The notes: generated by a model from the letters alone, not told the origin. DNA of 64,000 bases from an uncultured Planctomycetia bacterium (GCA_964406665.1 CAYOSQ010000001.1:7412-71411); one strand, 5' to 3'; shown: positions 2,638-33,038, counted from the stretch's first letter. A program made the numbers and translations.

Positions 2638-3171
2638 TTAGTGGATGCGAAAACTGCGGATTGCTTTTTTAAACGTAGATTCATAATTAGCAAATTGGAT
2701 ATCCTGAGCAGTACAAGTTACGATATAAGCCTTACCGTCCTTAACCCATAATACTGCCAAGGTTTTTATAGACATGTCTTGACCATCACTGGTAAAACTA
2801 AGCCAGTTACCGCGGTGCGACCCAGAAGAGATCTCCCCTTCAGAAATACCATATTCTTCTCCAGGGACTGTTTCTAAGGTTTCGTTTTTGAATAGTTCAA
2901 AAAAAGTAACCGTTTGCATACCGACAGGTGCAGTGGTAACTACTACGTTGATATTCTCCTGAAAACGATCTGCTTTATCTTCCAGCGGGGATTTAGTTAG
3001 AATTATCGTTCCGTACAATCCCTCTATCTTAACCCACAAACGAGGTAGAGAAATTGAGAAACCATAATGCTTGCTTTCATAATTCTGCCACAGAAGCCCA
3101 GGCACAAACAAAATCATTGCCATTATAACAACGAGCATAATTCCAATAATTCTTTTAGCTTTTAAGCTCAT
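2638..3171 (-). CDS. Hypothetical membrane-anchored protein (N-terminal TM helix), the last gene of the Tad-like cluster
   Basis: 177 aa ORF with an N-terminal hydrophobic anchor. It is 2 nt downstream of tadC on the same strand. Confidence 0.4.
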   Translation of the reverse strand: MSLKAKRIIGIMLVVIMAMILFVPGLLWQNYESKHYGFSISLPRLWVKIEGLYGTIILTKSPLEDKADRFQENINVVVTTAPVGMQTVTFFELFKNETLETVPGEEYGISEGEISSGSHRGNWLSFTSDGQDMSIKTLAVLWVKDGKAYIVTCTAQDIQFANYESTFKKAIRSFRIH

Positions 3172-3173
3172 TA

Positions 3174-4052
3174 TTAAAATCCTCCTGGGATTAATTCTCC
3201 TGAAGTAAACTTAATGATAATTGGGCCTGCAACAACAATCATAATTACCGGCAGAATAAAAAACAACAGTGGAAACAGAATCTTAAGAGATGCAGCAATT
3301 GCCTGCCTCTCCCCTTCTATAAAACGCCCTTCGCGGGTATCTTCAGATAAGTTCCTGAAGGCCTCTTCAACAGAAGTACCCATGCGCTCAGACTGAACAA
3401 CCGTACGCACAAAACTTCTGATATCAGGAATATCTAATCTTCTAGACATATCTTTTAAAGCATCTATTCTATTGCGGCCTACCTGAATTTCTTTAAGCAC
3501 AAGTTCAAGTTGTTCGCTAAATGCGTTTCTATCTACTTTCTCAATTACCCATTTAAGTGATGATGTAAAATCTAATCCGGCACCGATACAAAGATCAATT
3601 AAGTCTATAGTTTCTGGAAACACCCTGACTATTTCGCGCTTCTTTTGTTTTATCTTATTCATGAAAATCATGTCTGGAATAAAGAAGCCAATCGTTCCAC
3701 CCGCGAATGCATAGCCTTCTGTCTGGGTTAACAAATAAACAATAAATCCGCTGAACAATGACAAAAATATTTTAACCAACACCAATCCGGTAACATCGAG
3801 ATTGATTCTTAAAACCTCTGTTTGCATCTGAAGTTTCTTTAAATATGCCATATTGGCAATCGGCTGAGTCAAAGGAAGCAGGGGTTTCAACAATTTAGAA
3901 GAAGAAAGCTGATTAAGCCTAGATCCTTTAGAATCCAATACAGAACGCAAACGTGGTTTCTTTTGCACCTGAAGCATAGAGGTAGACATCATATAAACTG
4001 CCGTAGCAACCATAACTAAAATAGAATAATATAAAGTTGTCTCAAAATCCAT
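3174..4052 (-). CDS. tadC: Tad pilus inner-membrane platform protein TadC (type II secretion system F domain)
   Basis: T2SSF-domain signature: GLDFTSSLKWVI...QVGRNRIDALKDMSRRLDIPDIRSFVRTVVQSERMGTSVEEAFRNLSEDTR, followed by C-terminal TM helices. Confidence 0.8.
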   Translation of the reverse strand: MDFETTLYYSILVMVATAVYMMSTSMLQVQKKPRLRSVLDSKGSRLNQLSSSKLLKPLLPLTQPIANMAYLKKLQMQTEVLRINLDVTGLVLVKIFLSLFSGFIVYLLTQTEGYAFAGGTIGFFIPDMIFMNKIKQKKREIVRVFPETIDLIDLCIGAGLDFTSSLKWVIEKVDRNAFSEQLELVLKEIQVGRNRIDALKDMSRRLDIPDIRSFVRTVVQSERMGTSVEEAFRNLSEDTREGRFIEGERQAIAASLKILFPLLFFILPVIMIVVAGPIIIKFTSGELIPGGF

Positions 4053-4906
4053 TATACCCTCAATGTACTGATCTTCTTAATCAGAAATATAGCAAGTATC
4101 TGAGCTATAACTGCAGCAATAAGTAACATCCTGCCCTGCTCAGAACTCCACATAACATCAAAATGATCCGGCTGCTGCTTAGATATGAACAATGCGAAGC
4201 CAATCGGTAAAATACTCATAATGACACCTTGCATTCTTCCCTGCAGAGTAAGAGTCGCTATTTTATTTTTCAATTTTATATTGTTACGCATCGTCTCAAC
4301 AAGCCTGGAAAAAACCCTGGTTAACTCACCACCTGTCTCGCGGGCAACTAGAACAGAGCTAACCAAAAGATTTACTTCTTCAATCGGCATTCTTACCCTC
4401 AGCTTACGCATAGAATCTTCCAGGCTAACGCCCCACTTATTTTCCTTAAGGATCAAATTAAATTCCTGTGATACAGGAGGAGGCATCTCTTCACATAATA
4501 CTTCTATTGCCTGTATAAGACTCAATCCACCTTTTAATGAAGAAGAAAGAATCATCATACTATCAACTAACTGAGCCGTAAACTGCTTAAGCCTTCTTTG
4601 TTTAATAAAATTACTCGCAAAACCTGGAAAGGCTAGGCCTAAGAAAAACCCTACAATCAAACCTATTACACTTTGGAACAAAATAAAAAATGCCCCTGCA
4701 AAAATCAAGGGACATACAGAAATTAAAACTAGCTTCTTCTTTTCTAAAAAAATAAAAGAGTCTTCTAGTTTATCTACTACCTTATCTACTCTTTTTTCCT
4801 GCCAACTACCCCACTTTTTTGCAAAAGCAGGAATAATCGCTTCGACCAAAACGAAAGAAAAAATATAAGTTGCTATAAAAACTAGTAAATATATAAGTGC
4901 GTTCAT
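4052..4906 (-). CDS. tadB: Tad pilus inner-membrane platform protein TadB (T2SSF domain)
   Basis: LKGGLSLIQAIEVL...LVARETGGELTRVFSRLVETMR T2SSF motif with flanking TM helices. Its stop overlaps the tadC start. Confidence 0.8.
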   Translation of the reverse strand: MNALIYLLVFIATYIFSFVLVEAIIPAFAKKWGSWQEKRVDKVVDKLEDSFIFLEKKKLVLISVCPLIFAGAFFILFQSVIGLIVGFFLGLAFPGFASNFIKQRRLKQFTAQLVDSMMILSSSLKGGLSLIQAIEVLCEEMPPPVSQEFNLILKENKWGVSLEDSMRKLRVRMPIEEVNLLVSSVLVARETGGELTRVFSRLVETMRNNIKLKNKIATLTLQGRMQGVIMSILPIGFALFISKQQPDHFDVMWSSEQGRMLLIAAVIAQILAIFLIKKISTLRV

Positions 4907-4915: not shown

Positions 4916-5167
4916 CTATGGGGTCGGCGTGCTTATATCTGTAGTTACTGTACTACGAATACCTTCGTTTCCAACTATATCCGGCACATAGGTCTCCCCT
5001 CTACCGTAAGTCTCAGAAACTTCACGCCATTTTCCCACAAAACTATTTCTTATATAATACCCCATAACCACCAAAGTTGCAACAACAATTACAAGTAAAA
5101 CTACATAATCTAGCATTGCCTGAGCATGTCGGTAGCATTTTTGTTTTCTTTTCATCTTACTCCCCAC
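4916..5167 (-). CDS. Small Flp/TadE-like prepilin-type protein (variant class III leader A|QAMLDY)
   Basis: HAQAMLDYVVLLVIVVATLVVMGYY: a basic leader, then the QxxL(D/E)Y motif and a hydrophobic helix. Confidence 0.4.
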   Translation of the reverse strand: MGSKMKRKQKCYRHAQAMLDYVVLLVIVVATLVVMGYYIRNSFVGKWREVSETYGRGETYVPDIVGNEGIRSTVTTDISTPTP

Positions 5168-5227: not shown

Positions 5228-7498
5228 TTATTCCAGAGGTAGAGGACATGGATTTGAGTCGCCCCACGGCCAATCCGGATTCTCATAATCAGGATCAGGT
5301 ATTGCTGCTGGACAAGGAGGATAATCTTCCTGACATAAGATATTACAACACTCTAATTTCTCCGGTTCATCGCTTGTTGCGTAGTGAGAACAACAGTCCT
5401 GACACTCTTCCACCAAGCCAACGCATTCACTTATGCATTCTGCCTGACAATATGGCAAGATTTCTCCTTCTTCTCCTAAGCATGCTTCTTCAAATAAGTC
5501 TGCATTGAAACAATCCGGACATTCATCTTGTATATTCGTATCACCATCAATAAGATCAGCAATTTCTGCAATACAACGCTGTTGACAATCAGTAAGTGTC
5601 TCTCCGAAAAAACATTCATCAGTTGCAACATCATTAAATCCATCCCTATCAGCATCAAACCATCCATTGCCCGGCATTATTTCACAACAGGCATCTATAG
5701 CTAGCTTTAAAGCTTCAAGTGCATTTTGCTGAGCAATCAACCCATCTTCTGCATCATTGATTAATTGTTGAAGCCTATCTCGCAATGTTGATAATCCACA
5801 CAAAGGACCTTCTACCATATTAATACATTCTGATAGAGGAATATCTGATGCCATAATGTCACAACCTTCATCGCAATCCTCTGTAGGCTCCACACACCCT
5901 CTGCCCCAAAGATCAGGAGGATTATTGCCACATTCAACATTATTGTTTACCCAGGGATGAAGATAAGCCCTCTCTCCTCCCGGCAAACTATCCCACCAAG
6001 GAGGATATTGTCCATAGCTTTGCGTCTGGTGCATTACTTTAAGCTCGCAATTATAGAAAAGCCCGTCATTATTATCCAAACAGCAAAAACTTTCACAGCA
6101 CTCCTCTTCATAATCTAAACCAGCTCCTGTTGTCATACAATTTTCAACACATGGAGGCACTTCTTCTGTCCACATGCAGTATCCATAGCACGGAGGATTA
6201 TTGCCAGCATCATCGCACTGAAAACACTCTCTAACATTCCAGCAATACCACCAAAAGCGTCCCCAATCACTACCACAATCGTTTTCAAGCTGCCAGTCAG
6301 TCATTGTGGTATCGCAATGATCATCCTGACAATCGCTGGAACGTGGCGGAACACACAAAGCCATGCAATTATCAAAAGGATCTCCCGGGGGAAGACCTTG
6401 ACACCCTCCAAACATTGGAGAAGTGTTTGCACACCAATCTTCTGCCTCAGCATCACACTGATCTTCACATCTATCTTCTGCCCAAGTATAACAAGGAGCC
6501 TTACAAGGCTCTATGGCAGGCTCTGCGCAATCTTTCTGACAGCGCAACTCTGCATACTCTGCACAGCCATTGCCCGCGAGACCCGATGTAATTCCATTAA
6601 TGATATTATTGGCTTCAGATATCCTAACACCTAACTCTGCTATCTGGCTATCCCACTCATCTTTATATCCTTGTATTAACATAGGGCATTGATTTGCAGC
6701 AATTAAATCTAGGCACGCATTCATTTCATCTAAATTTGTATAAACTGGGTTCTGACAACAGTTATTAATATCGTTGTACCTTGCCTGGATTTCTGCTTTC
6801 CTAGCTGCAAGCTTGTTTGCCTCTGCATCAATCTTGTTTGCAGAGTCTTTCAATTTTCTTGCAGTTACTCCAAAACCTGCCCACCAGCAAAGCTCCCACC
6901 AATCATCGCATTCTTCTGCCTGCCTTCTTAATTCTGCTGCCTCACTGCGCATAGCTCTTTCTGCATCGTCAAGCGCGTCAATCTGTCCCGCTAAAGCAGC
7001 AAGCTTTGCTTCAGTATTTCTTTCACACATACATTTATCATAAACATAACAATCTTCTCTTATTTCATATATAATAATCCCATTTTCTCCAACATGTTCT
7101 ATAACGCATTCAGGATGAGCTGCTCTACACCGTTCCTCTGCATCTGCCATACCAATGGGTTGAAGAACGAACGAAATCTCTTGATCTGTTCTTCCTGCAA
7201 AAACCCAATCGTCAGTTATGTCCAGGGGCGCTATGGGATCAATCGTAGAAGAGCCCAAATAAGCAGTATCGTTATTGAAGGCTCCGTAAGAATCTTTATT
7301 CGCTGCAACCATACGGGTATCTTGATATTCATCTTGGCGCTGGGCAAAGTTTGAGGTAAACCAAAGCCAGATACGCGTAATGCCAATGGCTAATGCTAAA
7401 ACAACTATGAAGGAAAAAACAAAACCCAGGATTGACTGACCTATTCTGCGGTTTTTTCTAACTAGGAAAGGTATTTTTTTACAACCCAAACATATCAC
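5228..7498 (-). CDS. Giant Cys-, Asp/Glu- and Trp-rich secreted or pilus-associated protein with an Flp-like leader (paralog A, 756 aa)
   Basis: The N-terminal RRIGQSILGFVFSFIVVLALAIG resembles the Flp leader of the 71 aa pilin (G|QSILEY). There are about 64 Cys and the protein is very acidic. Conserved blocks AEECDDWWELCWWAGFG and CQAECIS.CVGLV.ECQDCC.HYAT..EPEKLECCN are shared with the 9925-12123 paralog. Confidence 0.6.
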   Translation of the reverse strand: MICLGCKKIPFLVRKNRRIGQSILGFVFSFIVVLALAIGITRIWLWFTSNFAQRQDEYQDTRMVAANKDSYGAFNNDTAYLGSSTIDPIAPLDITDDWVFAGRTDQEISFVLQPIGMADAEERCRAAHPECVIEHVGENGIIIYEIREDCYVYDKCMCERNTEAKLAALAGQIDALDDAERAMRSEAAELRRQAEECDDWWELCWWAGFGVTARKLKDSANKIDAEANKLAARKAEIQARYNDINNCCQNPVYTNLDEMNACLDLIAANQCPMLIQGYKDEWDSQIAELGVRISEANNIINGITSGLAGNGCAEYAELRCQKDCAEPAIEPCKAPCYTWAEDRCEDQCDAEAEDWCANTSPMFGGCQGLPPGDPFDNCMALCVPPRSSDCQDDHCDTTMTDWQLENDCGSDWGRFWWYCWNVRECFQCDDAGNNPPCYGYCMWTEEVPPCVENCMTTGAGLDYEEECCESFCCLDNNDGLFYNCELKVMHQTQSYGQYPPWWDSLPGGERAYLHPWVNNNVECGNNPPDLWGRGCVEPTEDCDEGCDIMASDIPLSECINMVEGPLCGLSTLRDRLQQLINDAEDGLIAQQNALEALKLAIDACCEIMPGNGWFDADRDGFNDVATDECFFGETLTDCQQRCIAEIADLIDGDTNIQDECPDCFNADLFEEACLGEEGEILPYCQAECISECVGLVEECQDCCSHYATSDEPEKLECCNILCQEDYPPCPAAIPDPDYENPDWPWGDSNPCPLPLE

Positions 7499-8486
7499 CT
7501 TCTTCGCTGTAAACTATCTGAACTACGGCTCCTTCCTCTGAAGAAATAATATTGGGCATGATGGTAATTTTGACAAACTCATAATCATTAGTGAAATTCA
7601 AAGTATAGGTCTGATAAAATGCTTTATCTAAATCCCTGGAACCGCTGAAAGGAAAACGAAGCTTTCCTAATTTAAATCCTTTTTTGCTGCCTGACATCTT
7701 CTTATATTTATCCAGCATATCTCCTGCCTTAAAAGAACTGGTTAAATCCCAACCCTCGAGCTCCATCATCCTTTCATAAAATTCCAATGCTTCATCTAAA
7801 GAGAGTTCAGTAGTGTAAGTAACATATGTTTGTTTTCCAATGTTCATGTTGGACAATCGCACACTATCAGGTGGACGAGGAACATCTGATAAATCTTCCC
7901 CCTCTAAATCTTCTTTGGGCATATCAAAAAAAGTGTCTTCTGTTGACATGGGCAGTTCATCTAAGTTGGCAACGCCAATGGGAAGAAGATATTTAGCAAT
8001 ACCAACATCTGTGCCGTCATCAGCAGCAGTTAAAGCTACTTCAACTACTAGCTGATCTTTCTTAAACTGCATCCTGCGTATTTTGCTTCTGGGAAGTAAT
8101 TCCATAACTTTATCTTTAATGTTTCCACCTTTTAATAAAGACGCGTTTTCCGGCTTAGCTATTGACTCTGGTGGAACCATATCAGGCATTTTTTCATCTA
8201 AAACATTATCAAATTCTTCGTCTCGGAAAAAATCACTGTAATAGTTTGCAACATCGAAACGATTATCTTCACTTTTGTATACAACTCCAGAGACATCTTG
8301 ACCTCTTAATTTAAGAGTAAATGTATCTATCTTTTCACTGTTCTCTGGTGCCGGCACAACAAAATCAATACCAACCTCATCTTCAGCCCAAACAGAAGAT
8401 AACAATAAAACAAGTGTCACTACAATAATGACACCCGGATAAACAAACAAATTACTTTTTTTGAAATATTTTCTATGTACCATCAT
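7479..8486 (-). CDS. Hypothetical secreted/periplasmic protein (N-terminal signal anchor) inside the Tad cluster
   Basis: 335 aa ORF with N-terminal hydrophobic segment VIIVVTLVLLLSSVWA. Same strand as the cluster and overlaps its neighbours by a few nt. Confidence 0.45.
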   Translation of the reverse strand: MMVHRKYFKKSNLFVYPGVIIVVTLVLLLSSVWAEDEVGIDFVVPAPENSEKIDTFTLKLRGQDVSGVVYKSEDNRFDVANYYSDFFRDEEFDNVLDEKMPDMVPPESIAKPENASLLKGGNIKDKVMELLPRSKIRRMQFKKDQLVVEVALTAADDGTDVGIAKYLLPIGVANLDELPMSTEDTFFDMPKEDLEGEDLSDVPRPPDSVRLSNMNIGKQTYVTYTTELSLDEALEFYERMMELEGWDLTSSFKAGDMLDKYKKMSGSKKGFKLGKLRFPFSGSRDLDKAFYQTYTLNFTNDYEFVKITIMPNIISSEEGAVVQIVYSEEGDMFGL

Positions 8487-9906
8487 CCCATTCTATCTCT
8501 TCTATGCCTGCTTCATAAAGATGTAGTTCAGTATTAAAATAATCTTCCCAGTGAGATATGATATAGGCAATGCCGATAGGTGCAGCTAACAATGTAAGGA
8601 ATATACCCCAGAGATTATCGGCATCCCATAAAGTCGGCTGAATAGTAGAAGTCCTTCCTCCGGGATAGCTTTCTACAAAAACCCGTGAGGAAGACTCGGC
8701 ATCAATTTGCTCCAACATAGGATCAGAATTACCATAGCGGAAATTCCATAAACCTAAGTTTTCTCCCTGCTTGTACCTTTGCACTTTAACCAATATAGGA
8801 CTGTTTTCTACCTGCCACTGTTGACCATCCATACCACCTTCGCTTGGATCTTTAAACTTCAGGCCGAAAGCAATGGATTTAATTAGCAACCTTCCTATTG
8901 TTGCCTCGGCACCGGCAAACAACCCTGCGATAATTGGTGCAAGCGGACCTGCCCAACCACACATGGCCAGCCAAGTAGGATATCTTGTTACAAATATATA
9001 GGCCCAAGCTAAATTAGCAGCCATATCCTGAGGTGCACCTAAATCAACTAAATCCAAAATGTACAACATTCTCATAGAAATTACACTTACTTCTACCCAG
9101 TTATCATAATCTCTCCAACAGCCATCATCCAGGCCGCCCCCCAAACAAGCTTGTTGATTTCCTCCAGAATCATCAAAACTGTTATGCATTACCCAATCAT
9201 CAGCAGCAACAGACCATTGCCACTCCCAACCATAGCCGTTTATCGGCATGGGGTCGCCTAAATCTGCTGAGGGGTCGTCAGTTTCTCCAAAAACATCTTC
9301 AACCCAAAACCCAGTTTTTGAATGAGACATAAATCTGGAAAAGCCGTTCATTCCATGCTCTTTAGCGTCAGGGCTTATACCAGCTATGTATTCATCATAT
9401 GATGCATTGCTGGCAGCCTTACCCGATCCTGCAAGAAAATCTTCATAGGTAGGCCTAGGTTCATCAACGCCTACATTGTTAAACGCATACTGTATGGCCG
9501 CCTTTCTGGCTCTTGCCCAGGCCATCTGAGAATCCCAACCAGCTTTTGCAAGCTTTGATAAATTGGAAGACATTACCGTTGCCAATGTTGCTATAGCAGT
9601 AATAAGATTTCCCGGAAACGGGATAAGAAGAAGCTCTAATATAATAGCTACACATTTTATTATATTCTCACCACACATTAAGTCGCTGGTAAGACCATAG
9701 CTAAGCAACTGACCTGTCATAGTGCTAGCTGCAGAGATTGACCCTGCATCAGCAGCATTGGATACATCGGTTTTAAACAAGGCTATCTGACCTACGTTTA
9801 CGGTAATCATTACCATAACGATTACAACGCAGAGAATCGCAATCAGAAAAGGAAATATCTGACCTGATTCATACTTTGTTTTGTCTTGGGAAAACTTAAT
9901 AAACAT
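8473..9906 (-). CDS. tadG: TadG-like pilus-assembly protein (TadE/G-like N-terminal domain)
   Basis: N-terminal GQIFPFLIAILCVVIVMVMITVNVGQIALFKTDVSNAADAGSISAAS matches the TadG pattern (TM helix followed by an NAADA(A/G) motif). Confidence 0.5.
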   Translation of the reverse strand: MFIKFSQDKTKYESGQIFPFLIAILCVVIVMVMITVNVGQIALFKTDVSNAADAGSISAASTMTGQLLSYGLTSDLMCGENIIKCVAIILELLLIPFPGNLITAIATLATVMSSNLSKLAKAGWDSQMAWARARKAAIQYAFNNVGVDEPRPTYEDFLAGSGKAASNASYDEYIAGISPDAKEHGMNGFSRFMSHSKTGFWVEDVFGETDDPSADLGDPMPINGYGWEWQWSVAADDWVMHNSFDDSGGNQQACLGGGLDDGCWRDYDNWVEVSVISMRMLYILDLVDLGAPQDMAANLAWAYIFVTRYPTWLAMCGWAGPLAPIIAGLFAGAEATIGRLLIKSIAFGLKFKDPSEGGMDGQQWQVENSPILVKVQRYKQGENLGLWNFRYGNSDPMLEQIDAESSSRVFVESYPGGRTSTIQPTLWDADNLWGIFLTLLAAPIGIAYIISHWEDYFNTELHLYEAGIEEIEWDDGT

Positions 9907-13579: not shown

Positions 13580-13583
13580 TTTT

Positions 13584-13910: not shown

Positions 13911-13945
13911 AAGCTTTTCCTTAAAATAGTTATTCTTAAGCTCAA

Positions 13946-14419: not shown

Positions 14420-14464
14420 CTTCTCTCCTGCTTTTCTTTTCTAAACTGCTTTTAACAATCCCTA

Positions 14465-14953: not shown

Positions 14954-14999
14954 CTTCCTTAATGTTTTATGCTTTTATTAAATAATTTAAAAATCTCTA

Positions 15000-24041: not shown

Positions 24042-24970
24042 TATTGTATCTCCCCTTCGTAATATTCGATTTTTGCCTTGTTAGAAAGATCGGCGATAAG
24101 CTGCTCAATTGCCGCCTGCTGCTTTACAAAAGTAAGTTCTCTTTTAATATCATCCCAGATATCAGACAATTCTTTTTGAGCACCGCCGCGTTTCTCCTCA
24201 AGCTTCACTATATAATATCCTTCCGGACCTTTAAAATAATTACTTGTTTTACCAACTTCCAAAGTATCTGAAAAAGCTTCAACATCAAACTGTGGAGATT
24301 TTACTCCTCTTTGTATAAAACCCAAATCTCCGCCCTTATCTTTACTGGCTGCCTTCGAACGTTCTACGGCCAAAGCAGCAAAATCGACTCCTTGATATAT
24401 TTGAATAATAACACCCCTTGCTTCCTCCTCGGTATTAACCACTATTTCGCGCAGATGTCTTTCTTCTGGATCTTTTAACTGTTCTTTATACGTTTCATAA
24501 AAATTATTTATTTCATCATATGTTACCACTACACTCTCGGCTTCTTTTCTCACCAACTCCATAACCAGAAGATCTGCTTTGGTTTTCTCTAAAATTCTTT
24601 GTATCTCAGGATTACTATCCAGCCCTCTGCTCTGTGCTTCTTGATAAAGCAAAGAACGACGCACCATTTCATTCTTTAAATATTCAACTTTCTGCTCGGG
24701 TGTGGTAATTTTTACTTCAGGCCTGTCTTCTGGCACTAAGGCATTAAAACTATCAACCTCTTCGTTAAGATCTTCTAGTACGATGGGATAATTGTTTACT
24801 TTTGCAACAACTGTGCCGGTTACCATGGGAATCTTGACCGACTTCGTTGCAGAAGTACCCGTTTTAGGTGGGCTTAAAAACGGAATTTGTTCACAACCGA
24901 TAAAATAAAAAGATATAATAACTAAGCATACAGCTACCACTAATCCTTTTAAAGACTTAAGGTTACTCAT
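24041..24970 (-). CDS. Parvulin-type peptidyl-prolyl cis-trans isomerase (SurA/PrsA-like), probable lipoprotein
   Basis: PpiC-type domain GGDLGFIQRGVKSPQFDVEAFSDTLEVGKTSNYFKGPEGYYIVKLEEKRG. Signal peptide ending in Cys (FIGC). Confidence 0.6.
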   Translation of the reverse strand: MSNLKSLKGLVVAVCLVIISFYFIGCEQIPFLSPPKTGTSATKSVKIPMVTGTVVAKVNNYPIVLEDLNEEVDSFNALVPEDRPEVKITTPEQKVEYLKNEMVRRSLLYQEAQSRGLDSNPEIQRILEKTKADLLVMELVRKEAESVVVTYDEINNFYETYKEQLKDPEERHLREIVVNTEEEARGVIIQIYQGVDFAALAVERSKAASKDKGGDLGFIQRGVKSPQFDVEAFSDTLEVGKTSNYFKGPEGYYIVKLEEKRGGAQKELSDIWDDIKRELTFVKQQAAIEQLIADLSNKAKIEYYEGEIQ

Positions 24971-25136: not shown

Positions 25137-26840
25137 TTATTCTACATTAGTCAACCACTGTATTCTTCCAATTGTAGCTCCAGAGCTTTCAGGGATAATA
25201 TCAAAATTTTCAAATTCTATTGCACCTTGTAAATATGGAATCTGGCCTGCATACTGTGGCACCTCTGAACGAATGAGAAGATTCCCCCGACTACCATCGC
25301 ATGCAAAATTAGCATCACAGTTTGAATAACACAATGATGACATCACTACACTGTCGCATAACCTATGACATTCGGATCTATATGCCAAATAGTTAGCAAT
25401 GCCTGGTCTTACGTTCAGCCAATGATAAATCTCCTGAAAATCTAAACACTCTTGCATGCACTGTCCGGGATTATCCAGAGCACAAAAATCTCTACACTCA
25501 TAATAACCGTCAACGGTTCCCAACTCTTCATTGTCTAAACATTTCCGAATACACTCTGTATCGCATTTGTCTACAGCACAACATTCTTGTACGCATCCAG
25601 ATTTTCCATATGCAAACTGATATTCTCTGGCACACCAACGCATACAATGATCAGGATCACACCTACGATGACATTCAGAATCAGGATGCTCTGGCTGTAA
25701 AATTTCTAAACAACTATTAAAACATTGATCTCTACACGCAATTCCCTTGCAATCTTTATCAATATTGCTGCACATTTTATAACAAGCAGAACCTTCCTCT
25801 AAATCACAATCGGCAACACAGCGAACCGAATCTGTAGGGTCATGTTCTTGTTGCAGGCAAAGCGTTTGACCAAGCAATGGTTCGTCATCAACTTGAAAAA
25901 AGTACTCAGGAGAATCATTAACACCGTTACCGGCAACATGGGCAAAGTGTTCAATAAATCCCGTCTGCAAATCCCAGGGAATATTATATTCCCCATAACA
26001 CGGTATACCGTCTCCGGCTACACAGGGAAATTCTCCTGTTTCGTCAAAGCCCTCGCCATCATCTACCCATTCTTCAAGCAACAATTCTGTTTTTCCCAAA
26101 GTAATATATATATCTTCACTTTTGTAAGAAAGATCCTCTCCCTCTGGGGAGTCATTTGGACCTTCAAGTTTATGATATTTAGCAGAATAACTTATATCAT
26201 ATTTTCCAGCAGGAAGACCTAAATTTGCAAAATAGATAATATTCTTACCTCCCATAAGCAGCTCCCCATCTTCTCCTATAGTTGCATCACCAACTTCAAT
26301 GTTCATAGGGGCAACATAGCTGTATTTTACTGAGCATTGTACTGTCTTTAATGTTGAGCCTCCTAATATAGGAACTGTTGCAGATGCAGTTAAAAGATAA
26401 ATGTAGTCTCCTGGGATAGGAGGTTTCCCTGCTCCAGAGCCGTAAGTGTCTACGCTGATTAATTGAGCAGTGTTTTTATTAATAGATTCAAGCTGTTCAG
26501 GTGTACATTCGAAGTGTCCGTGCCCGGTCCCACCAGTTTCCCCAGAACCTCTATCGGTTTCTGGCAAAGACCACTCAAACACTTCACCAATATCTTTCTG
26601 CTCTATGGGAAAATGCTTAGGGAATTCACCTGTGTCAAAGTAAACTTTTATCTCTTGGATTTTTTCTCTGGCAGCTGATTCTGCTAACCAGAGTGCTTGG
26701 GTGGTACCAATCTGTCTTTTAGTAGAAGATATTTCTCTTACCGAAGACATGAATACTCCGGTAATGATAGCACCGAAGAGAATACATAAACCTAAAGCAG
26801 TAATCAGAGCAAAGCTTTTTTTATTATTTGGTTTATTCAT
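25137..26840 (-). CDS. PilX_N-domain minor-pilin-like protein with a Cys-rich C-terminal domain (567 aa)
   Basis: The N-terminal KKSFALITALGLCILFGAIITGVFMSSVREISSTKRQIGTTQALWLAESAAREKIQEI matches the PilX N-terminal pattern. The C-terminus has ECHRRCDPDHCMRWCA and the tail LLIRSEVPQY..PYLQGAIEF...RIQWLTNV, shared with 26854-28734 and 31260-33038. Confidence 0.55.
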   Translation of the reverse strand: MNKPNNKKSFALITALGLCILFGAIITGVFMSSVREISSTKRQIGTTQALWLAESAAREKIQEIKVYFDTGEFPKHFPIEQKDIGEVFEWSLPETDRGSGETGGTGHGHFECTPEQLESINKNTAQLISVDTYGSGAGKPPIPGDYIYLLTASATVPILGGSTLKTVQCSVKYSYVAPMNIEVGDATIGEDGELLMGGKNIIYFANLGLPAGKYDISYSAKYHKLEGPNDSPEGEDLSYKSEDIYITLGKTELLLEEWVDDGEGFDETGEFPCVAGDGIPCYGEYNIPWDLQTGFIEHFAHVAGNGVNDSPEYFFQVDDEPLLGQTLCLQQEHDPTDSVRCVADCDLEEGSACYKMCSNIDKDCKGIACRDQCFNSCLEILQPEHPDSECHRRCDPDHCMRWCAREYQFAYGKSGCVQECCAVDKCDTECIRKCLDNEELGTVDGYYECRDFCALDNPGQCMQECLDFQEIYHWLNVRPGIANYLAYRSECHRLCDSVVMSSLCYSNCDANFACDGSRGNLLIRSEVPQYAGQIPYLQGAIEFENFDIIPESSGATIGRIQWLTNVE

Positions 26841-26853: not shown

Positions 26854-28734
26854 TTAATTTACGTTAGTCAACCATTGAATTCTTCTAACCGTAGCCCCGG
26901 ATTCTTCCGGAACAATATCAAAGCTTTCAAACTGAACAGAACCCTGTAAATAAGGTAACGCATAGTGGTATTGTGGCACCTCTGAACGAATTAAAAGATT
27001 ACCTCTAAAATCATCACATAGAAAATAAGAATCACAGTTAGAAAAACAAGTCTTTTTACTAGATAAATTTTTGCATAGCCTATGACATTCAGACATAAAG
27101 CCTGCTGCTTCGGGAATGCCAGGCCTAACATTCTCTCCATTATAGTCTCTCTGAAAATTCAAAGCGCAATCATCCACGCACTCTCCGGGATTGTCTATAG
27201 CACAAAAATCTTTGCACTCTGTATATCCCTCTATAGCTTGTTTTTGCTTAAATGCACATTGAAGCAAACAATCTTGGTCACAGGCCGTTTTGCCACAACA
27301 TAATTCTACGCACTGAGAATGTATATATGCTGTTTCATACTCAAAGGCACACCAACGCATACAATGAACCGGGTCACACCTACGGTGACATTCAGAGTTT
27401 GGATGTTCTTTCTGAAAAATTTCTACGCAACCTTTATAGCATGGTCCGCCACAACCAGAACCTTCACAATCGTCATCAAGCTGTTCGCACATTTTGCTAC
27501 ACAAAGAATCCTCTTCTAGATCACAATCATCTTGATAAAATTCAAGCCTCGAAGGATCTAAAATATCATACAGACCTAAAAAGCTTTCAACCAAAGGATC
27601 ATCATCAACTTCAAAGTGATACTGCAGATCTTCGTTAACCCCGTTATCAGCAATATGGGTAAAGTTTTCAGCAAATCCTGTTTGTAAATCCCAGGGAATA
27701 TTATATTCGCCGTAACATGACATGTCATCTCCAGCAACACAAGGAAGTTCTCCGGCTTCATCAAAACCGTCACCGTCATCTACCCACTCTTGCAGAAGAA
27801 TTTCGCTTTTACCTAATCTAATGTAAAAATTCTCTTCTTGAAAAGGGCTAACTTTTTCTGCTTCCCGTAAACTACGGCCAATATGCTGATTATATTTTGC
27901 AACATAGCTCAAATCGTATCTACCTGCAGGCAGATCTAAATCTTTATAATAAATAATATTATCGACTCCCATCTTTATACGTCCATCTTCTCCTATAGTT
28001 GCATCACCAACTTCAATATTCATAGGAGCAACATAGCTGTATTTTACTGAGCATTGTACTGTCTTTGATGTTGAGCCTCCTAATATAGGAACTGTTGCAG
28101 ATGCGGTTAAAAGATAAATGTAGTCTCCTGGAATAGGAGGATCTCCTGTTCCAGAACCATAAAGATTGACGCTGATTAATTGAGCACTGGTGGCTATGAC
28201 TGGAATATCTAGAGCATCAACAATCTTTTCAATCTTTGCCTTCTGGGAAGATGCGCTTTTTGGCTGACTAGCGCCACCAGAGGCGGGAGGCAGACCTTTT
28301 GGCTGACTAGCGCCACCAGAGGCGGGAGGCAGACCTTTTGGCTGACTACCACCTCCTGAATCAGGCTCATGTCCTGAGGGATCTTCATGACTCCCGTCTT
28401 GATCATCTGGCATAAAACCCCACTCATACTCTTTACCTATATCTTTATCAGGGTCTACGGGGAAGTGTTTAGGGAATTCACCGATGTCAAAGTATGTTTT
28501 TATCTCTTGGATTTTTTCTCTGGCAGCTGATTCTGCTAACCAGAGTGCTTGGGTGGTACCAATCTGTCTTTTAGTAGAAGATATTTCTCTTACCGAAGAC
28601 ATGAATACTCCGGTAATGATAGCACCGAAGAGAATACATAAACCTAAAGCAGTAATCAGAGCAAAGCTTTTTTTATTATTTGGTTTTTTTATTACTTTCA
28701 CCCCACCTACTCCTGCAAAGAATTGATTGGCCAA
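26854..28734 (-). CDS. PilX_N-domain Cys-rich protein, tandem paralog (626 aa as tracked). The probable true start is the GTG near 28701 (V of GVKVIKKPNNKK), preceded by a GGAG RBS.
   Basis: The first roughly 62 aa after KKPNNKK are identical to the 567 aa paralog. It contains a 3x GGASQPKGLPPAS repeat, and its C-terminus has ECHRRCDPVHCMRWCA ... RIQWLTNVN. Confidence 0.55.
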   Translation of the reverse strand: MANQFFAGVGGVKVIKKPNNKKSFALITALGLCILFGAIITGVFMSSVREISSTKRQIGTTQALWLAESAAREKIQEIKTYFDIGEFPKHFPVDPDKDIGKEYEWGFMPDDQDGSHEDPSGHEPDSGGGSQPKGLPPASGGASQPKGLPPASGGASQPKSASSQKAKIEKIVDALDIPVIATSAQLISVNLYGSGTGDPPIPGDYIYLLTASATVPILGGSTSKTVQCSVKYSYVAPMNIEVGDATIGEDGRIKMGVDNIIYYKDLDLPAGRYDLSYVAKYNQHIGRSLREAEKVSPFQEENFYIRLGKSEILLQEWVDDGDGFDEAGELPCVAGDDMSCYGEYNIPWDLQTGFAENFTHIADNGVNEDLQYHFEVDDDPLVESFLGLYDILDPSRLEFYQDDCDLEEDSLCSKMCEQLDDDCEGSGCGGPCYKGCVEIFQKEHPNSECHRRCDPVHCMRWCAFEYETAYIHSQCVELCCGKTACDQDCLLQCAFKQKQAIEGYTECKDFCAIDNPGECVDDCALNFQRDYNGENVRPGIPEAAGFMSECHRLCKNLSSKKTCFSNCDSYFLCDDFRGNLLIRSEVPQYHYALPYLQGSVQFESFDIVPEESGATVRRIQWLTNVN

Positions 28735-29345
28735 ACTCCGTCTATTGATTTGAAAGAAATCGATGTATCAATATTGGGAACCTTCTTCTCCAAAGTCAAT
28801 TCAAAAAATAAAGTCTCTCCATCGTCATATTGTTGGTTTACCGCTATTGTTTCAGAAGATGAACAAGTAAAAGAAACAACATTGTCAGTTATAACCTGAG
28901 ACACACTTACCACGCCAGAATTATCTGTTCGCATTAAACATCCTGTATTAGAGTTAACGCTATACACAATATTCGTATTAGCGGGATAGTATTCGAGAAC
29001 ATAATCACAATCGCCCCCTTCTTCTCCACCTTCACAACTACTAATCCAAAGACTTCCGTCATTATTTATATCCTTAGGAAGTGCAGCTGAAATGACACAG
29101 TTATTTACAGAGTTATGGTTAAACATTAACTTCTGCAGACCGTTTGGTTTTGCATTTCTTAGTTCTGACACTAATATGTTGGTTGCTCTATTGGCTTTTT
29201 GTTGCAACTCTACAGCAGAAAGCTCTGAAAAACTATATCTCATGGTAACAGCAAGAGCTGTAGCTCCAATGCCTGCAACTATGCTGAAAATTAAAGCTAC
29301 CATTAATACTTCTGGTAAGGTAAAACCAATATTTCTTAGCTTCAT
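28707..29345 (-). CDS. Type IVa/T2SS-type minor prepilin (PilW/GspJ-like), leader G|FTLPEV
   Basis: RNIGFTLPEVLMVALIFSIVAGIG is a classical prepilin cleavage/methylation-type N-terminus with Glu at +5. Confidence 0.6.
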   Translation of the reverse strand: MKLRNIGFTLPEVLMVALIFSIVAGIGATALAVTMRYSFSELSAVELQQKANRATNILVSELRNAKPNGLQKLMFNHNSVNNCVISAALPKDINNDGSLWISSCEGGEEGGDCDYVLEYYPANTNIVYSVNSNTGCLMRTDNSGVVSVSQVITDNVVSFTCSSSETIAVNQQYDDGETLFFELTLEKKVPNIDTSISFKSIDGVWPINSLQE

Positions 29346-29782
29346 AAACCAACCTCTATATATTCATCTACAATTTTTCCGTCAGTAATCCATCTAACAC
29401 CTACCTGAACATGTAAAGGCCTATCGGGCAATCCCGGAGACGCAGGAAGGTCATCTATGTATTCAACAGAAATCTTTTCTTCGGGAAGATATGGCGGATC
29501 GATCCAATCCCTTATATCAGGAGCTACTCCTTCGGGAAAATGTGTGATGTAAACAGCTTGGATACCTTCTTTTACTTCTATGCTTTTTAATATTTCTACT
29601 AAACGTTGGGCGTGTAAAGTTGCGGTCATCTGCTGGCCTAAAAGAATACGTAGTTGCCTGGCACAGGCAAAAGTTTTACCTGCTGCTACAAAAATAGCAA
29701 CAACAACTAGCAGAGAAATAAGAATCTCTACAAAAGATACTCCCAAGCGATTTTTGGAAAATACCTTAATCATTATATTCAA
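29342..29782 (-). CDS. Type IVa/T2SS-type minor prepilin (PilV/GspI-like), leader G|VSFVEI
   Basis: NRLGVSFVEILISLLVVVAIFVAAG. Paralogous to the divergently encoded 30136-30576. Confidence 0.55.
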   Translation of the reverse strand: MNIMIKVFSKNRLGVSFVEILISLLVVVAIFVAAGKTFACARQLRILLGQQMTATLHAQRLVEILKSIEVKEGIQAVYITHFPEGVAPDIRDWIDPPYLPEEKISVEYIDDLPASPGLPDRPLHVQVGVRWITDGKIVDEYIEVGL

Positions 29783-30135: not shown

Positions 30136-30576
30136 ATGCGTTACGCAAAAAACAAAAAAGGCATGATGATGCTATTGGAGGTCTTGGTTTCTTCGGTGGT
30201 TACCACCATCGTCGTTGCCGTAATGACTCTTACCTTGGTGCAGGAAAGAAATTTTCGCGCAACCCTAGGAGAACAAATGATAGCCACGTTTCATGCGCAA
30301 CGAATTATTGAGACGATGAAAAAGATAGAAAAACAAAGTGGCATAGAAGCAGTATACAACAATCCCTATTTTCCCGTAAACGACGAAGTAGTATGGAGCA
30401 ATTGCGATTGCATTGATGGGATTCTATTGCCGGGAGAAGTGGCAAAAATTACCTATCCTGATGGCCCGCTGCCACCGCCGGGCACGCTTCCTCCACGACC
30501 CTTACGTGCGCGCGTTGAAATTTTATGGAATAATAACGGTCGAACGCTCACCGAGGTTATGGAGGTAAATCTATAA
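30136..30576 (+). CDS. Minor prepilin (PilV/GspI-like), mirror paralog of 29342-29782
   Basis: KKGMMMLLEVLVSSVVTTIVVAV. An EQMIATFHAQRIIETMKKIE block is shared with the minus-strand paralog (QQMTATLHAQRLVEILKSIE). Confidence 0.55.
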   Translation: MRYAKNKKGMMMLLEVLVSSVVTTIVVAVMTLTLVQERNFRATLGEQMIATFHAQRIIETMKKIEKQSGIEAVYNNPYFPVNDEVVWSNCDCIDGILLPGEVAKITYPDGPLPPPGTLPPRPLRARVEILWNNNGRTLTEVMEVNL

Positions 30577-30578
30577 AA

Positions 30579-31235
30579 ATGACCCTCCATCCTTATTTAC
30601 GATTTTGTACATACCGATATAAAAAGAAGTCTGCTTCTTCTAAGGGGACTATTCTCATAGAAATGCTTATCGCTGTATTGATTATTGCACTTATCTCAGG
30701 TGTTGTAGGCGGCTTGTTGATTGCTCTCTCGCGGTTTTATTTTACCGAAATGGTTAAAACGGAACTTCAACAAAAAGGAAATCGCTCTATTACTCTTCTT
30801 GTTACAGAATTACGCGATGCGCAATCGCAGGGAACAGATATTTTAACCTTTACCCATGACAGCAACGGTAATTGTATAATCGATGCCTTTCTTCCCTACG
30901 ACGTCAATGACGATGATAGTCTTTGGAATTTAGCCTGTGATGAAGAAGGAAGACATTGTGATTTTAACATTGAATACGATGCTGCCGGCCAAATGCAGTA
31001 TATGGTTGATATGACGACTAACCAACTACAGCGCGTTTATACCAATGGAGTAGCATTGGTGCTATGCAATAATGTAAGAACGTTTATGTGTGCAGAGCCT
31101 GTTGGAGATGCGAATCAGTACGACGAAGGCGAGATGCTTTCGCTACGTCTTGAATTGTCCAAAGAAATTCCTTACCTTGGTCAAACGGCAGAAATAATTT
31201 TGGAAGATGGTGTATGGCTGGTGAATTCGCTCTGA
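30579..31235 (+). CDS. Minor prepilin (PilW/GspJ-like), leader G|TILIEM; paralog of 28707-29345
   Basis: SKGTILIEMLIAVLIIALISGVVGG with ELQQKGNRSITLLVTELRDA, compared with ELQQKANRATNILVSELRNA in the paralog. Confidence 0.6.
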   Translation: MTLHPYLRFCTYRYKKKSASSKGTILIEMLIAVLIIALISGVVGGLLIALSRFYFTEMVKTELQQKGNRSITLLVTELRDAQSQGTDILTFTHDSNGNCIIDAFLPYDVNDDDSLWNLACDEEGRHCDFNIEYDAAGQMQYMVDMTTNQLQRVYTNGVALVLCNNVRTFMCAEPVGDANQYDEGEMLSLRLELSKEIPYLGQTAEIILEDGVWLVNSL

Positions 31236-31259
31236 TATATTGAAAGGAGTATTCCTTAA

Positions 31260-33038
31260 ATGTTAGGCATTTATTCTCGCAAAGGACAAGTAGTTATTAT
31301 TACCTTAATACTTGTTGTTGCCTTCGCTGCAATCACCGCCAGCTTGTTTATGTCTTCTGTAGGTGAATGGATTTCTACGCGTCGCCAGCGCGACACAACA
31401 AAAGCAGTATGGGTTGCTGAGGCTGGCCTGCAACAGAGGATGCGAGATATAGAAACATGGTTTAATAACGGGCCTTTTCCTACAAACTTTCCCGTTGATT
31501 CTGATGAAATTGGTGACACGTATACGTGGCAAAACACTACTTTTTTCGGCGGAAACTACAATTCAAGTGCAACACTTATTCATATACGGGAATATGCTCC
31601 GGATACTCCGGATTATGTTCAGGAAGATCCACCTTCTGCAGAATATGTGTATTTAATTGAAGCAGAGGCAAATATATCCGCTCTCCCAGGACCTCAAGGA
31701 TTTACCACGCGCAAAGCCCAATGTGCAGTAGCATATGACTATCTTGGTCCAACCATATTTATAGATAGAGACAACAGAACATTAGGCAGAAGAGGAGCAA
31801 CGATTTTTGCTTCCGGAGGCATCTACAGATTAGCCAATATTATGCATTTCGGCAATCTAGATTTACCTCCAGGAAGATATAGCATGTCTTTTAGATCAGT
31901 CTATACTCAAGTTGCTGGCCCTCCTCTTCCTCCCAATAATGCTTCATACCCTTTGGCCCATGAAGATGCTTATATACATTTGGGCGACTCAAATATTTTA
32001 CTTGAGGAATGGACGGATGACGGCGATGGCTTTGAAGTAGACGGAGTGACTCCCTGCGTTGCTAATGATAGCGTTGTCTGTTACGGCGAATATAATATTC
32101 CCTGGGAGATGCAGAACTCTCATGAAGAATGGTATGAACATATTGATGAAGATGGAGTCCATGAAAATCCTCTGTATACTTTTGAAATCTCAGATGAAGA
32201 AGAAACTGAAATAGCAGAGTTCGCCTGCCACGGCGGAACACCTTCAGATCAAGATGCCGAAGAAGGCTCTTCAGGTTTTGTAGGCACCTGCTGGAATGAT
32301 CTTGATTTAGAAGAAGATTCAACCTGTAGCCAATTTTGCAACACCATTGACGACGCTTGTATCGGGCAAGATTGTATAACTCAATGCTGGGATGGCTGTC
32401 TTGACAATTTTCAGTGGAACCATCCTGATTCCGAATGTCATCGTAGATGCGAACCAATACATTGCATGAGATGGTGTGCGCAGGAATACCAACTTAAATA
32501 TCCCCAATCAGAATGCAACTTACTCTGTGCATCCGAGGCAGACCAAGCAAGCTGTGTGCAAACATGCATTGCTGATGAACAAAGCGGGCAAAACGGCAGA
32601 GAAGAATGCAAAGATTTCTGCGGAATTGAACCGCCAAATGGAATGACACAAATGGAAGCTTGCTTAACCGAATGTACTCTGGATACCACTGGGCTCCAAT
32701 TGGTATATGATGGGTCGTGGCATTCTGCATTTCTCTCGGAATGTCACAGAATCTGTGACAACATTACAGGCCCTCAACAATGTTTGGATAATTGTGATTT
32801 CTTATTCTTTAGAGAAGACATTCAAGGAGATATGCTGCTACGTACAGAAATAGGTCAATTTGATAACCAAAGACCATATCTACAAGGAGCTATGGAGTTT
32901 GATAAGCTTATTTTAACACCGGAAGACCCAGGTGCAAGCATCACTGACGTACAATGGATAACCAACCCTAGCCGCATAGAGATGCCACCAGAAGATCATC
33001 ATGGTAGGCATGCTGAAGAATTCGAACAATCATTTTAA
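31260..33038 (+). CDS. PilX_N-domain protein with a Cys-rich C-terminal domain (592 aa), third paralog
   Basis: The N-terminal LILVVAFAAITASLFMSSVGEWISTRRQRDTTKAVWVAEAGLQQRM is PilX_N-like. The C-terminus has HPDSECHRRCEPIHCMRWCAQEYQ ... LLRTEIGQF..PYLQGAMEF...VQWITN. Confidence 0.55.
   Translation: MLGIYSRKGQVVIITLILVVAFAAITASLFMSSVGEWISTRRQRDTTKAVWVAEAGLQQRMRDIETWFNNGPFPTNFPVDSDEIGDTYTWQNTTFFGGNYNSSATLIHIREYAPDTPDYVQEDPPSAEYVYLIEAEANISALPGPQGFTTRKAQCAVAYDYLGPTIFIDRDNRTLGRRGATIFASGGIYRLANIMHFGNLDLPPGRYSMSFRSVYTQVAGPPLPPNNASYPLAHEDAYIHLGDSNILLEEWTDDGDGFEVDGVTPCVANDSVVCYGEYNIPWEMQNSHEEWYEHIDEDGVHENPLYTFEISDEEETEIAEFACHGGTPSDQDAEEGSSGFVGTCWNDLDLEEDSTCSQFCNTIDDACIGQDCITQCWDGCLDNFQWNHPDSECHRRCEPIHCMRWCAQEYQLKYPQSECNLLCASEADQASCVQTCIADEQSGQNGREECKDFCGIEPPNGMTQMEACLTECTLDTTGLQLVYDGSWHSAFLSECHRICDNITGPQQCLDNCDFLFFREDIQGDMLLRTEIGQFDNQRPYLQGAMEFDKLILTPEDPGASITDVQWITNPSRIEMPPEDHHGRHAEEFEQSF

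Follow-up and report, generated by a model that had tools for sequence, protein, structure and literature searches.

What kind of pilus is encoded where the genes of a Tad (Flp, type IVc) system lie beside prepilins of a second class and giant cysteine-rich proteins? This question is raised by positions 2638-33038 of a 64,000-nucleotide stretch of DNA (GCA_964406665.1, CAYOSQ010000001.1:7412-71411, carried under the name of an uncultured Planctomycetia bacterium; the whole stretch is called the window from here on), which a preliminary description, made from the sequence alone, presented as a hybrid pilus super-locus. The answer favoured here, to which we give a probability of about 60%, is that the region is a Tad pilus cluster in the arrangement typical of its phylum, belonging to an uncultured Omnitrophota bacterium and bearing two lineage-specific elaborations. 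Omnitrophota are abundant, uncultured and ultra-small, and are thought to live as epibionts, parasites or predators.

The Tad backbone and its relatives

The listing and translation of open reading frames (ORFs) in the window, whose GC content is about 39%, places 27 co-oriented and closely packed genes on the minus strand between 2638 and 29782, or 28 if a doubtful 71-aa ORF is counted, and three genes on the plus strand beyond them, at 30136-33038. The co-orientation and the short plus-strand arm are as first described, but the total is about 30 genes and not the 32 or so that had been claimed. Both announced groups of large cysteine-rich proteins are real, namely the two giant ones, CysA1 and CysA2, and a second family formed by CysB1, CysB2 and CysB3 (sizes and cysteine contents in Table 1).

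The Tad core named in the preliminary description (tadC, tadB, a fused tadZ-tadA, rcpA, cpaB and a tadG-like gene) was borne out by hidden Markov model (HMM) searches of the window ORFs of at least 90 aa, in which the core domains pass the curated Pfam cut-offs. The TadA part of the fusion matches PF00437 (T2SSE) with 211.5 bits (cut-off 24.9; residues 365-644 of 717), and residues 4-243, the TadZ part, give AAA_31, CbiA and ParA matches. TadB and TadC match PF00482 (T2SSF) with 71.7 and 53.8 bits (cut-off 25.2), RcpA contains Secretin (125.8 bits) and T2SS-T3SS_pil_N (50.8 bits) domains, RcpC/CpaB scores 91.5 bits, and the TadG-like protein matches PF13400 (Tad) with 28.8 bits (cut-off 22.3). 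The parvulin peptidyl-prolyl isomerase (PPIase) is likewise confirmed by Pfam, and its gene forms, with those of CpaB, RcpA, TadZ-TadA and DUF192, a unit with intergenic gaps of -1 to 14 nt.

When TadZ-TadA was compared with species-representative genomes, the best matches all came from Candidatus Omnitrophota, with 74% identity to SAG AM-311-J20 and 50-64% to many metagenome-assembled genomes. Comparative synteny, which had been suggested as a check, was studied in 86 fetched loci (six of them the window species' own contigs), whose ORFs were compared with the window proteins by local BLAST to map gene order. Dozens of Omnitrophota genomes show the same Tad order. It opens with a divergent unit made up of a GGDEF-like response regulator, a histidine kinase and a FIST protein, and continues with PPIase, CpaB, RcpA-TonB_C, TadZ-TadA, DUF192 and a PE799-like gene, followed by five or six Flp-like genes, p306, a CysA homologue, TadG, p335, a small Flp-like gene, TadB, TadC and a PsbP-like gene. 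The FIST/kinase/regulator unit lies beside the Tad operon in 18-20 fetched loci, and tRNA-Glu(CTC) is found between FIST and PPIase in ten relatives, 36-611 nt upstream of PPIase, as a conserved left border of the operon. The claim that the arrangement is not a standard Tad one fails, therefore, for the Tad part, which has the same order in many Omnitrophota genomes and has been described in outline, but it stands for a block of 8.2 kb with type IVa (T4a)-like minor pilins, which is lineage-specific.

The region is not an assembly artefact, because contigs from six independent assemblies match positions 9304-31457 at 99.97-100% identity, spanning both junctions of interest; the chimeric origin that the preliminary description had named as a threat to its proposal is excluded. 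In a base-by-base comparison with two independent assemblies (L001 and L002) over about 22 kb, the sole differences were four single-nucleotide polymorphisms within 12 nt (26350-26361), inside CysB1.

Canonical tad/cpa loci are represented by tadZABCDEFG-rcpCAB-flp-tadV of Aggregatibacter and cpaA-F of Caulobacter. The window shares with them TadA, TadZ, TadB/TadC, RcpA with its pilus N-terminal domain, RcpC/CpaB, a TadG-like protein and leaders with E+5/Y+6, but its TadZ is fused to TadA, its secretin carries TonB_C, its leaders all have Gln at +1, it has eight Flp paralogues and pseudopilins of up to 756 aa, and its locus is without TadV, TadD and RcpB. The TadZ-TadA fusion is full-length in all Omnitrophota matches. 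It is not specific to the phylum, since full-length fusions also occur in other phyla; among loci L062-L086 they were found, for example, in Moritella, Rhodospirillales and Binataceae. The TonB_C domain occupies approximately residues 448-541 of RcpA, in an extension that aligns in nearly all Omnitrophota loci; the Tad loci which the same scan supplied from other phyla gave no alignment. As judged from these alignments, the secretin-TonB_C fusion is phylum-wide in Omnitrophota.

A protein with a Pro/Glu-rich linker had also been announced; it is indeed present and was found, in addition, to carry a transposase-like fold. This protein, PE799, consists of a helix-turn-helix-like N-terminus, an acidic Pro/Glu-rich linker of about 290 aa and a C-terminal domain of 460 aa, for which a confident model was predicted (predicted local distance difference test score, pLDDT, 83.2; predicted template modelling score 0.83). 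In this model the domain has an RNase-H-like, Tn5-transposase-like fold, and a search of PE799 against PDB sequences gave nothing meaningful. A conserved Y-x2-R-W-P-N motif resembles the YREK signature of IS4, and the acidic position that follows it varies (E/D/Q/A/G). Identification of PE799 as an IS4/Tn5-type DDE transposase was rejected, given the lack of a conserved catalytic glutamate and the fixed position of the gene. A homologue was found in 51 of the 86 fetched loci, and DUF192 and the first Flp gene flank it in five of the six distant Omnitrophota loci for which gene order was mapped. Taking into account this distribution, the maintenance of gene position and the variability of the acidic residue, PE799 looks domesticated, and it is probably a transposase-derived, DNA-binding protein.

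In outline, the locus has already been described in passages of two earlier papers. Seymour et al. 2023 (PMC10066038) find Tad complexes throughout Omnitrophota, with a complete and expressed one in Ca. Velamenicoccus archaeovorus, and link the Omnitrophota Tad phylogeny to predatory bacteria, while section 11 of West-Roberts et al. 2023 (bioRxiv 10.1101/2023.11.21.568195) deals with a phylum-conserved secretion locus, usually preceding giant predicted effector genes, which contains gspD, gspE, gspF, rcpC, a Rotamase_2 PPIase and many small class-III-signal-peptide genes. The likeness between the window and this published Tad or 'secretion system' locus (LiM, PMC10066038; bioRxiv 10.1101/2023.11.21.568195) covers gspD/rcpA, gspE/tadA, gspF/tadB-C, rcpC, the Rotamase_2 PPIase and the small class-III-signal-peptide genes. 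The window differs in the absence of an adjacent giant gene, in the extra 8.2 kb block of T4-type minor pilins and CysB at tRNA-Glu, in its expanded and duplicated CysA and in its extra Flp paralogues. Three elements described here, a c-di-GMP-I riboswitch, the transposase fold of PE799 and the secretin-TonB_C fusion, are not mentioned in the passages of PMC10066038 and bioRxiv 10.1101/2023.11.21.568195 devoted to the locus and are, to that extent, new.

The same two papers bear on a different explanation, according to which the apparatus would mainly serve type-II-like secretion or contact killing and not adhesion, with the Cys-rich proteins as exported cargo or as the tip of a pseudopilus piston. 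The naming of the conserved locus as a secretion system in front of giant effector genes (bioRxiv 10.1101/2023.11.21.568195) and the phylogenetic link to predators (PMC10066038) are consistent with it. However, no giant gene flanks the locus in the window, where a UbiA-family gene follows on the other strand; the leaders of CysA and CysB are of the pilin type and are not Sec or Tat signals; and eight Flp-like genes accompany a full pseudopilin set. A secretion or contact-killing role has been proposed for the conserved Omnitrophota locus adjoining giant genes and for the Kil system of Myxococcus; for the present locus, we consider it unlikely and retain the Tad pilus as the preferred reading.

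The predicted c-di-GMP-I riboswitch

The gap of 247 nt between PE799 and the first Flp gene, f88 (preceded by a GGAGAG ribosome-binding site), contains a match to Rfam model RF01051 at minus-strand positions 16160-16291 (38.4 bits, gathering score 35; E 5.8e-4; full model, 1-87). Cyclic di-GMP (c-di-GMP) is the predicted ligand of this aptamer, which also matches the variant model RF03167 with 33.7 bits, below its cut-off of 59. At the equivalent place in locus L031, the same element scores just under the RF01051 threshold. With a covariance model trained on these two elements, 12 further Omnitrophota Tad loci were found to contain it (E <= 2e-4); in each of them it is on the Tad strand, a few kb downstream of tadA. 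The copies share the conserved cores GGCAA, CGCAAAGCCACGGGA and AGCCGGGUUACCGAAAGCC, and all possess a P1b hairpin whose sequence differs from copy to copy, a pattern of covariation.

The 3' strand of the aptamer (GCCGGGUUAC) can alternatively pair with GUAAUCCGGU, forming a terminator-like hairpin (-27.1 kcal/mol, z -5.3) followed by UUUUUAUUUUU, and because of this alternative pairing the element may act as a transcriptional ON switch. Since all gaps from f88 through the PsbP-like gene are of 64 nt or less, the pilins, the pseudopilins including CysA, and also TadB and TadC are probably under riboswitch control. A scan for promoters and terminators gave counts that were not above shuffled expectation.

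Riboswitches of the c-di-GMP-I (GEMM-I) class precede pilus genes in, for instance, Geobacter, and a c-di-GMP-II ON switch precedes pilA1 of Clostridioides difficile. As in these cases, an aptamer of clan CL00126 lies directly upstream of pilin genes here, in an architecture compatible with an ON switch; in contrast to them, it stands before a Tad/Flp operon, in Omnitrophota, and has a long insertion inside P2.

With regard to c-di-GMP, it has to be noted that the conserved response regulator at 36087-37022 (plus strand) reads GGDDF in place of GGDEF, with a Pfam match covering part of the GGDEF model, and its cyclase activity is uncertain because of this change. A PilZ protein is encoded at 49110-49490.

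Cysteine-rich proteins and the minor-pilin block

A [G/A]|Q-x3-[E/D]-[Y/F] leader, or a degenerate form of it, is found in 12 proteins (sm83, f88, f77, f71, f127, f162, f157, f108, f155, p306, CysA1 and CysA2). Nine of the carriers are small proteins; in the eight-gene Flp run the motif reads [G/A]|Q-x3-E-[Y/F], being degenerate in f155, and the orthologues in relatives follow an identical order. Archaeal pilins processed by EppA and the Flp pilins of Gram-positive bacteria likewise typically have Gln at +1 and Glu at +5 (PMC3875500). The C-terminus of f77 (15674-15880, minus strand) contains a 13-residue tandem duplication (KRVQEEMTYNRYL KRVQEEMTYNR), which its orthologues lack and which is present in independent assemblies.

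The CysA proteins are composed of a conserved anchor, a coiled-coil hairpin with CDDWWELCWW, a variable Cys-rich extension and a conserved C-terminus. Over roughly their first 110 mature residues, CysA1 and CysA2 hardly differ (90% identity across 300 nt). Local BLAST and HMM searches of the fetched loci revealed homologues of the N-terminal module at the equivalent position in other Omnitrophota, in proteins of 80-479 aa with 0-30 Cys; those of the window have the largest size observed and are duplicated on either side of TadG and p335. Because the N-terminal module is kept at the same position while length ranges from 80 to 756 aa, CysA is best described, from its sequence, as a pseudopilin in the TadE/F position, an expanded and duplicated version of the one present in relatives. 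Other searches with these proteins were negative: CysA has a pilin-type leader but no HMM match, a word-indexed homologue search with CysA1 returned only the query (the paralogue's cluster being represented by a 297-aa fragment), and CysA2 gave nothing meaningful against PDB sequences. A kinship between CysA and CysB was rejected, and they are treated as two families, because their similarity vanishes with composition correction (best E 0.015). No similarity was found between p335 and the PsbP-like protein.

The block of T4-type minor pilins and CysB fills the interval from the 3' end of tRNA-Glu (33138) to the start of PPIase (24970), which measures 8.2 kb here and 36-611 nt in relatives, with two cassettes in mutually inverted orientation, each containing a small pilin, a medium pilin and PilX_N-like Cys-rich protein. 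In PDB, a profile built on the medium pilins finds the N-terminal helices of geopilin, PilA, PpdD and GspG (best E 2.1e-6). The mirrored cassette of G|FTLxE-type pilins with PilX_N proteins that had been claimed is correct in its arrangement and for mp212, the sole T4a-type pilin that passes the models (N_methyl PF07963, 21.4 against 21.2 bits; TIGR02532, 22.4 against 16.3); the other three small and medium pilins are assigned by motif (G|VSFVE, G|TILIE or a degenerate leader), and PilX_N stays below its threshold. CysB begins with a PilX_N/GspK-like helix, followed by a predicted beta-rich region, a helical insert of about 180 aa in which C-x3-C and C-x7-C spacings dominate, and a conserved C-terminal strand region.

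A word-indexed search with CysB found six proteins, and an exhaustive profile search of 1.84 billion representatives gave ten strong matches and about 28 weak ones covering only the N-terminal helix; its profile found nothing meaningful among PDB sequences. Source tracing covered P0006, P0007, P0009, P0010, P0011 and P0013, with P0012 left untraced: these six strong relatives come from two single-cell genomes, outside the window's own population. The contigs of the weak relatives P0017 and P0020 were too short for their contexts to be used. GCA_042567325.1 has two cassettes in tandem, separated by more than 10 kb from every Tad or T4P machinery gene; one encodes pilins of 148 aa (KKG|FTLVE) and 183 aa with a PilX_N-like protein of 509 aa, the other pilins of 168 and 175 aa with three CysB-like proteins. 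In SAG AM-311-J20, further CysB copies adjoin electron transfer flavoprotein (ETF) genes. No PilB/PilC/PilMNOPQ or Gsp machine gene was found in the window or within 10 kb of the cassette in GCA_042567325.1. Since a related single-cell genome carries the same cassette at a distance from Tad genes, the block is, on this comparative evidence, an autonomous module of small, medium and large tip pilins that was inserted next to the Tad operon, with a possible functional link to Tad.

CysB paralogues share repeats at the DNA level. Elsewhere in the same genome (loci L087-L090), a shortened paralogue of 417 aa, with an N-terminus 94% identical in DNA to that of CysB2, lies beside a radical-SAM gene. 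In one contig of 3.3 kb (L092), the CysB2/CysB1 region runs into the tail of this orphan CysB locus; the contig was not adopted as evidence of recombination, being a probable assembly chimera through a shared repeat.

GspI-GspJ-GspK and PilV-PilW-PilX are the known tip complexes of the type II secretion system and of the type IVa pilus (T4aP), respectively. The cassette resembles them in its fixed order of small, medium and large PilX_N/GspK-like members, the large one with an extra domain; it differs in lacking an H/FimU-like fourth member and adjacent machinery, in the helical Cys-rich insert of its large subunit, which is often duplicated (1-3 copies), and in PilX_N and GspK scores below cut-off.

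It could be thought that these proteins form a true hybrid pilus, in which the T4a-type small, medium and PilX_N-like proteins would be co-expressed with Tad and incorporated by the Tad machine, giving tips of TadE/F type (CysA) or GspI/J/K type (CysB). Such a pilus would be consistent with the position of the cassette in the two closest genomes, the window and L007, directly upstream of the PPIase-CpaB-RcpA unit and co-oriented with it (166 nt away in the window, abutting PPIase in L007), with the G-1/E+5 leader shared by both protein sets, which one prepilin peptidase could in principle cleave, and with the absence of T4aP machinery from the 64 kb of the window. The remote cassettes of GCA_042567325.1, the copies beside ETF genes and the inversion of one window cassette, which points away from the Tad operon, argue against it, and we know of no Tad system that uses G|FTLxE pilins. 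A shared filament thus seems doubtful to us; at present, the hybrid of two pilin classes amounts to a juxtaposition next to a tRNA gene. The term 'hybrid super-locus' describes the gene content correctly but overstates the evidence, given that the same cassette type lies away from Tad genes elsewhere.

Compared with the closest relative, L007, the core proteins are 52-74% identical (TadZ-TadA 74, DUF192 64, RcpA 63, PPIase 61, CpaB 52) and the cassette proteins 35-43%. No other parts of the locus diverge as fast as the pilin-anchored Cys-rich heads, which are nearly confined to a single lineage. It is also conceivable that the Cys-rich domains bind metals or clusters, for instance to make redox or electron-transfer contact with a partner, instead of acting as disulfide-stapled adhesin heads, and the dominance of C-x3-C and C-x7-C spacings in predicted helical segments of very acidic, Trp-rich proteins would suit such a function. 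However, no Fe-S, haem or zinc-binding family was matched in Pfam, NCBIfam or PDB, CxxCH motifs are lacking, and Cys positions are kept between paralogues while their surroundings diverge, as expected for structural cysteines, so that we hold metal binding to be very improbable.

Several results weigh against the favoured reading of the region as a Tad pilus cluster with added elaborations. The claim of at least nine Flp/TadE-type prepilins is supported by motif, in 12 proteins, but not by HMM: the best Flp_Fap (PF04964) score is 16.9 bits (cut-off 32.2), Class_IIIsignal is also below its cut-off, p306 reaches 13.6 bits for TadE (cut-off 22.9), and the small-Flp profile matched no solved Tad pilin in PDB. 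Because of this weak HMM support, the small proteins are Flp-like by motif and context. The N-terminal hydrophobic helix of CysB is likewise sub-threshold (PilX_N 15.5 against 25.5 bits in CysB3; GspK 14.3 against 130 in CysB1), and the AlphaFold2 model of CysB1, built from a 6-sequence alignment, was too poor for fold comparison (pLDDT 37.7). Since structure prediction failed for CysB, the adhesin and tip roles are drawn solely from leader motifs, position and divergence. As the preliminary description had indicated, no Peptidase_A24 (TadV/CpaA) match exists among the scanned window ORFs, and TadD and RcpB are absent from 2638-33038, for which reason the window alone cannot close pilus assembly and processing. 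At the far end of the block, no att-like repeat of tRNA-Glu (no 11-mer match) and no integrase were found. Moreover, the adjacency and co-orientation of the cassette with PPIase fit chance as well as co-expression with Tad, and we infer the ON polarity of the riboswitch from its folding alone.

In relation to the prepilin peptidase, a crude hydrophobicity filter applied to sequence up to 10 kb from the Omnitrophota loci left no polytopic ORF as a candidate, and DUF192 was rejected as a substitute, being small, soluble and without transmembrane segments. The tetratricopeptide repeat protein at 37041-38213 has a transmembrane anchor and lacks a lipobox; none of the fetched loci encodes a homologue of it.

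Neighbouring genes, working model and significance

The features of the region are collected in Table 1.

Table 1. Features of the Tad cluster, the minor-pilin block and the adjoining regulatory genes, with positions in the window
Feature	Position	Strand	Basis
Membrane-anchored PsbP-like protein	2638-3171	-	Pfam; order sm83-TadB-TadC-PsbP-like same in L035, L031, L025, L030
TadC	3174-4052	-	Pfam T2SSF
TadB	4052-4906	-	Pfam T2SSF
sm83, Flp-like	4916-5167	-	Leader motif
CysA1, 756 aa, 64 Cys	5228-7498	-	N-terminal homologues at equivalent position in relatives
p335, secreted	7479-8486	-	
TadG-like	8473-9906	-	PF13400
CysA2, 732 aa, 63 Cys	9925-12123	-	N-terminal homologues at equivalent position in relatives
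p306, TadE-like	12165-13085	-	TadE sub-threshold
Eight Flp-like prepilin genes: f88 (ATG 16107), f77, f71, f127, f162, f157, f108, f155	13112-16107	-	Leader motifs, orthologue order
Flp operon leader: promoter-like site, aptamer, terminator-like hairpin	16108-16358	-	
Candidate sigma-70-like promoter	16358-16331	-	Motif; sites overall not above chance
Predicted c-di-GMP-I (GEMM-I) aptamer	16296-16155	-	RF01051, clan CL00126 match
Terminator-like hairpin and U-run	16182-16108	-	Overlaps aptamer 3' strand
PE799	16391-18790	-	Helix-turn-helix-like N-terminus, Pro/Glu linker, transposase-like fold (predicted)
DUF192	18954-19295	-	Pfam
TadZ-TadA fusion, 717 aa	19304-21457	-	Pfam, NCBIfam
RcpA secretin with C-terminal TonB_C	21472-23097	-	Pfam, NCBIfam
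CpaB/RcpC	23106-24041	-	Pfam, NCBIfam
Parvulin/SurA-like PPIase	24041-24970	-	Pfam
CysB1, 567 aa, 33 Cys (cassette 1)	25137-26840	-	
CysB2, 626 aa, 30 Cys (cassette 1)	26854-28734	-	
mp212, medium pilin, G|FTLPE (cassette 1)	28707-29345	-	N_methyl and TIGR02532 pass
mp146a, small pilin, G|VSFVE (cassette 1)	29342-29782	-	Motif
mp146b, small pilin (cassette 2, inverted)	30136-30576	+	
mp218, medium pilin, G|TILIE (cassette 2)	30579-31235	+	Motif
CysB3, PilX_N-like, 592 aa, 27 Cys (cassette 2)	31260-33038	+	PilX_N sub-threshold
tRNA-Glu(CTC)	33138-33215	-	ARAGORN, Rfam
FIST sensor	33325-34566	+	Pfam
GAF histidine kinase	34572-36083	+	Pfam
Response regulator with GGDEF-like domain reading GGDDF	36087-37022	+	Pfam, sequence

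Beyond the regulators, tRNA-Leu(GAG) and tRNA-Gln(CTG), at 38649-38735 and 41324-41398 in the window, are also syntenic across Omnitrophota. Just past the regulatory unit (39018-40629, minus strand) are encoded a CsgG-family lipoprotein with FlgT-like regions and then an unannotated secreted protein of 227 aa. Three secreted proteins scattered among housekeeping genes (43828-45186, 55333-56835 and 58935-59624, all on the minus strand) share an N-terminus in which a signal peptide is followed by TTYYPAPYGAYK, and two of the three have a Peptidase_S74 intramolecular-chaperone domain like that of phage tail fibres.

From what is known of these families, the following working model can be proposed. 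The ATPase TadZ-TadA would polymerise the small Flp pilins together with TadB/TadC, and the filament would pass CpaB and the RcpA secretin, the latter probably being tied to the wall by its TonB_C domain, while the SurA-like PPIase would serve as a periplasmic folding helper. With their pilin-type leaders, p306, CysA and TadG would act as priming or tip pseudopilins, and the Cys-rich heads of CysA1 and CysA2 would be shown at the pilus tip as adhesins. Pilus production would follow from c-di-GMP through the ON switch, and the signal may come from the neighbouring FIST/kinase/GGDEF-like unit. Assembly of the minor-pilin/CysB module would most likely fall to a type IVa machine whose genes lie in another part of the genome, and the fast-diverging Cys-rich heads would serve in the recognition of host or prey surfaces.

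A bolder version of this model has also been considered, in which a single Tad machine under the control of c-di-GMP would make filaments capped by interchangeable, fast-diversifying Cys-rich heads from two unrelated pilin classes, the TadE/F-type CysA and the GspI/J/K-type CysB. It is a speculative proposal, with a small chance of being right. If true, a type IVc pilus would possess, in these interchangeable heads, a modular system for recognising host or prey that was recruited beside the Tad operon at tRNA-Glu.

The Tad apparatus of Omnitrophota is the leading candidate for host attachment, and the cluster analysed here provides it with a putative regulatory handle, in the form of a predicted c-di-GMP riboswitch that precedes the pilin operon in at least 12 further fetched loci, with a conserved FIST/kinase/GGDEF-like unit beside it. 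The secretin-TonB_C fusion and the transposase-fold protein are two further conserved parts of the locus, and the Cys-rich heads are candidate recognition proteins.

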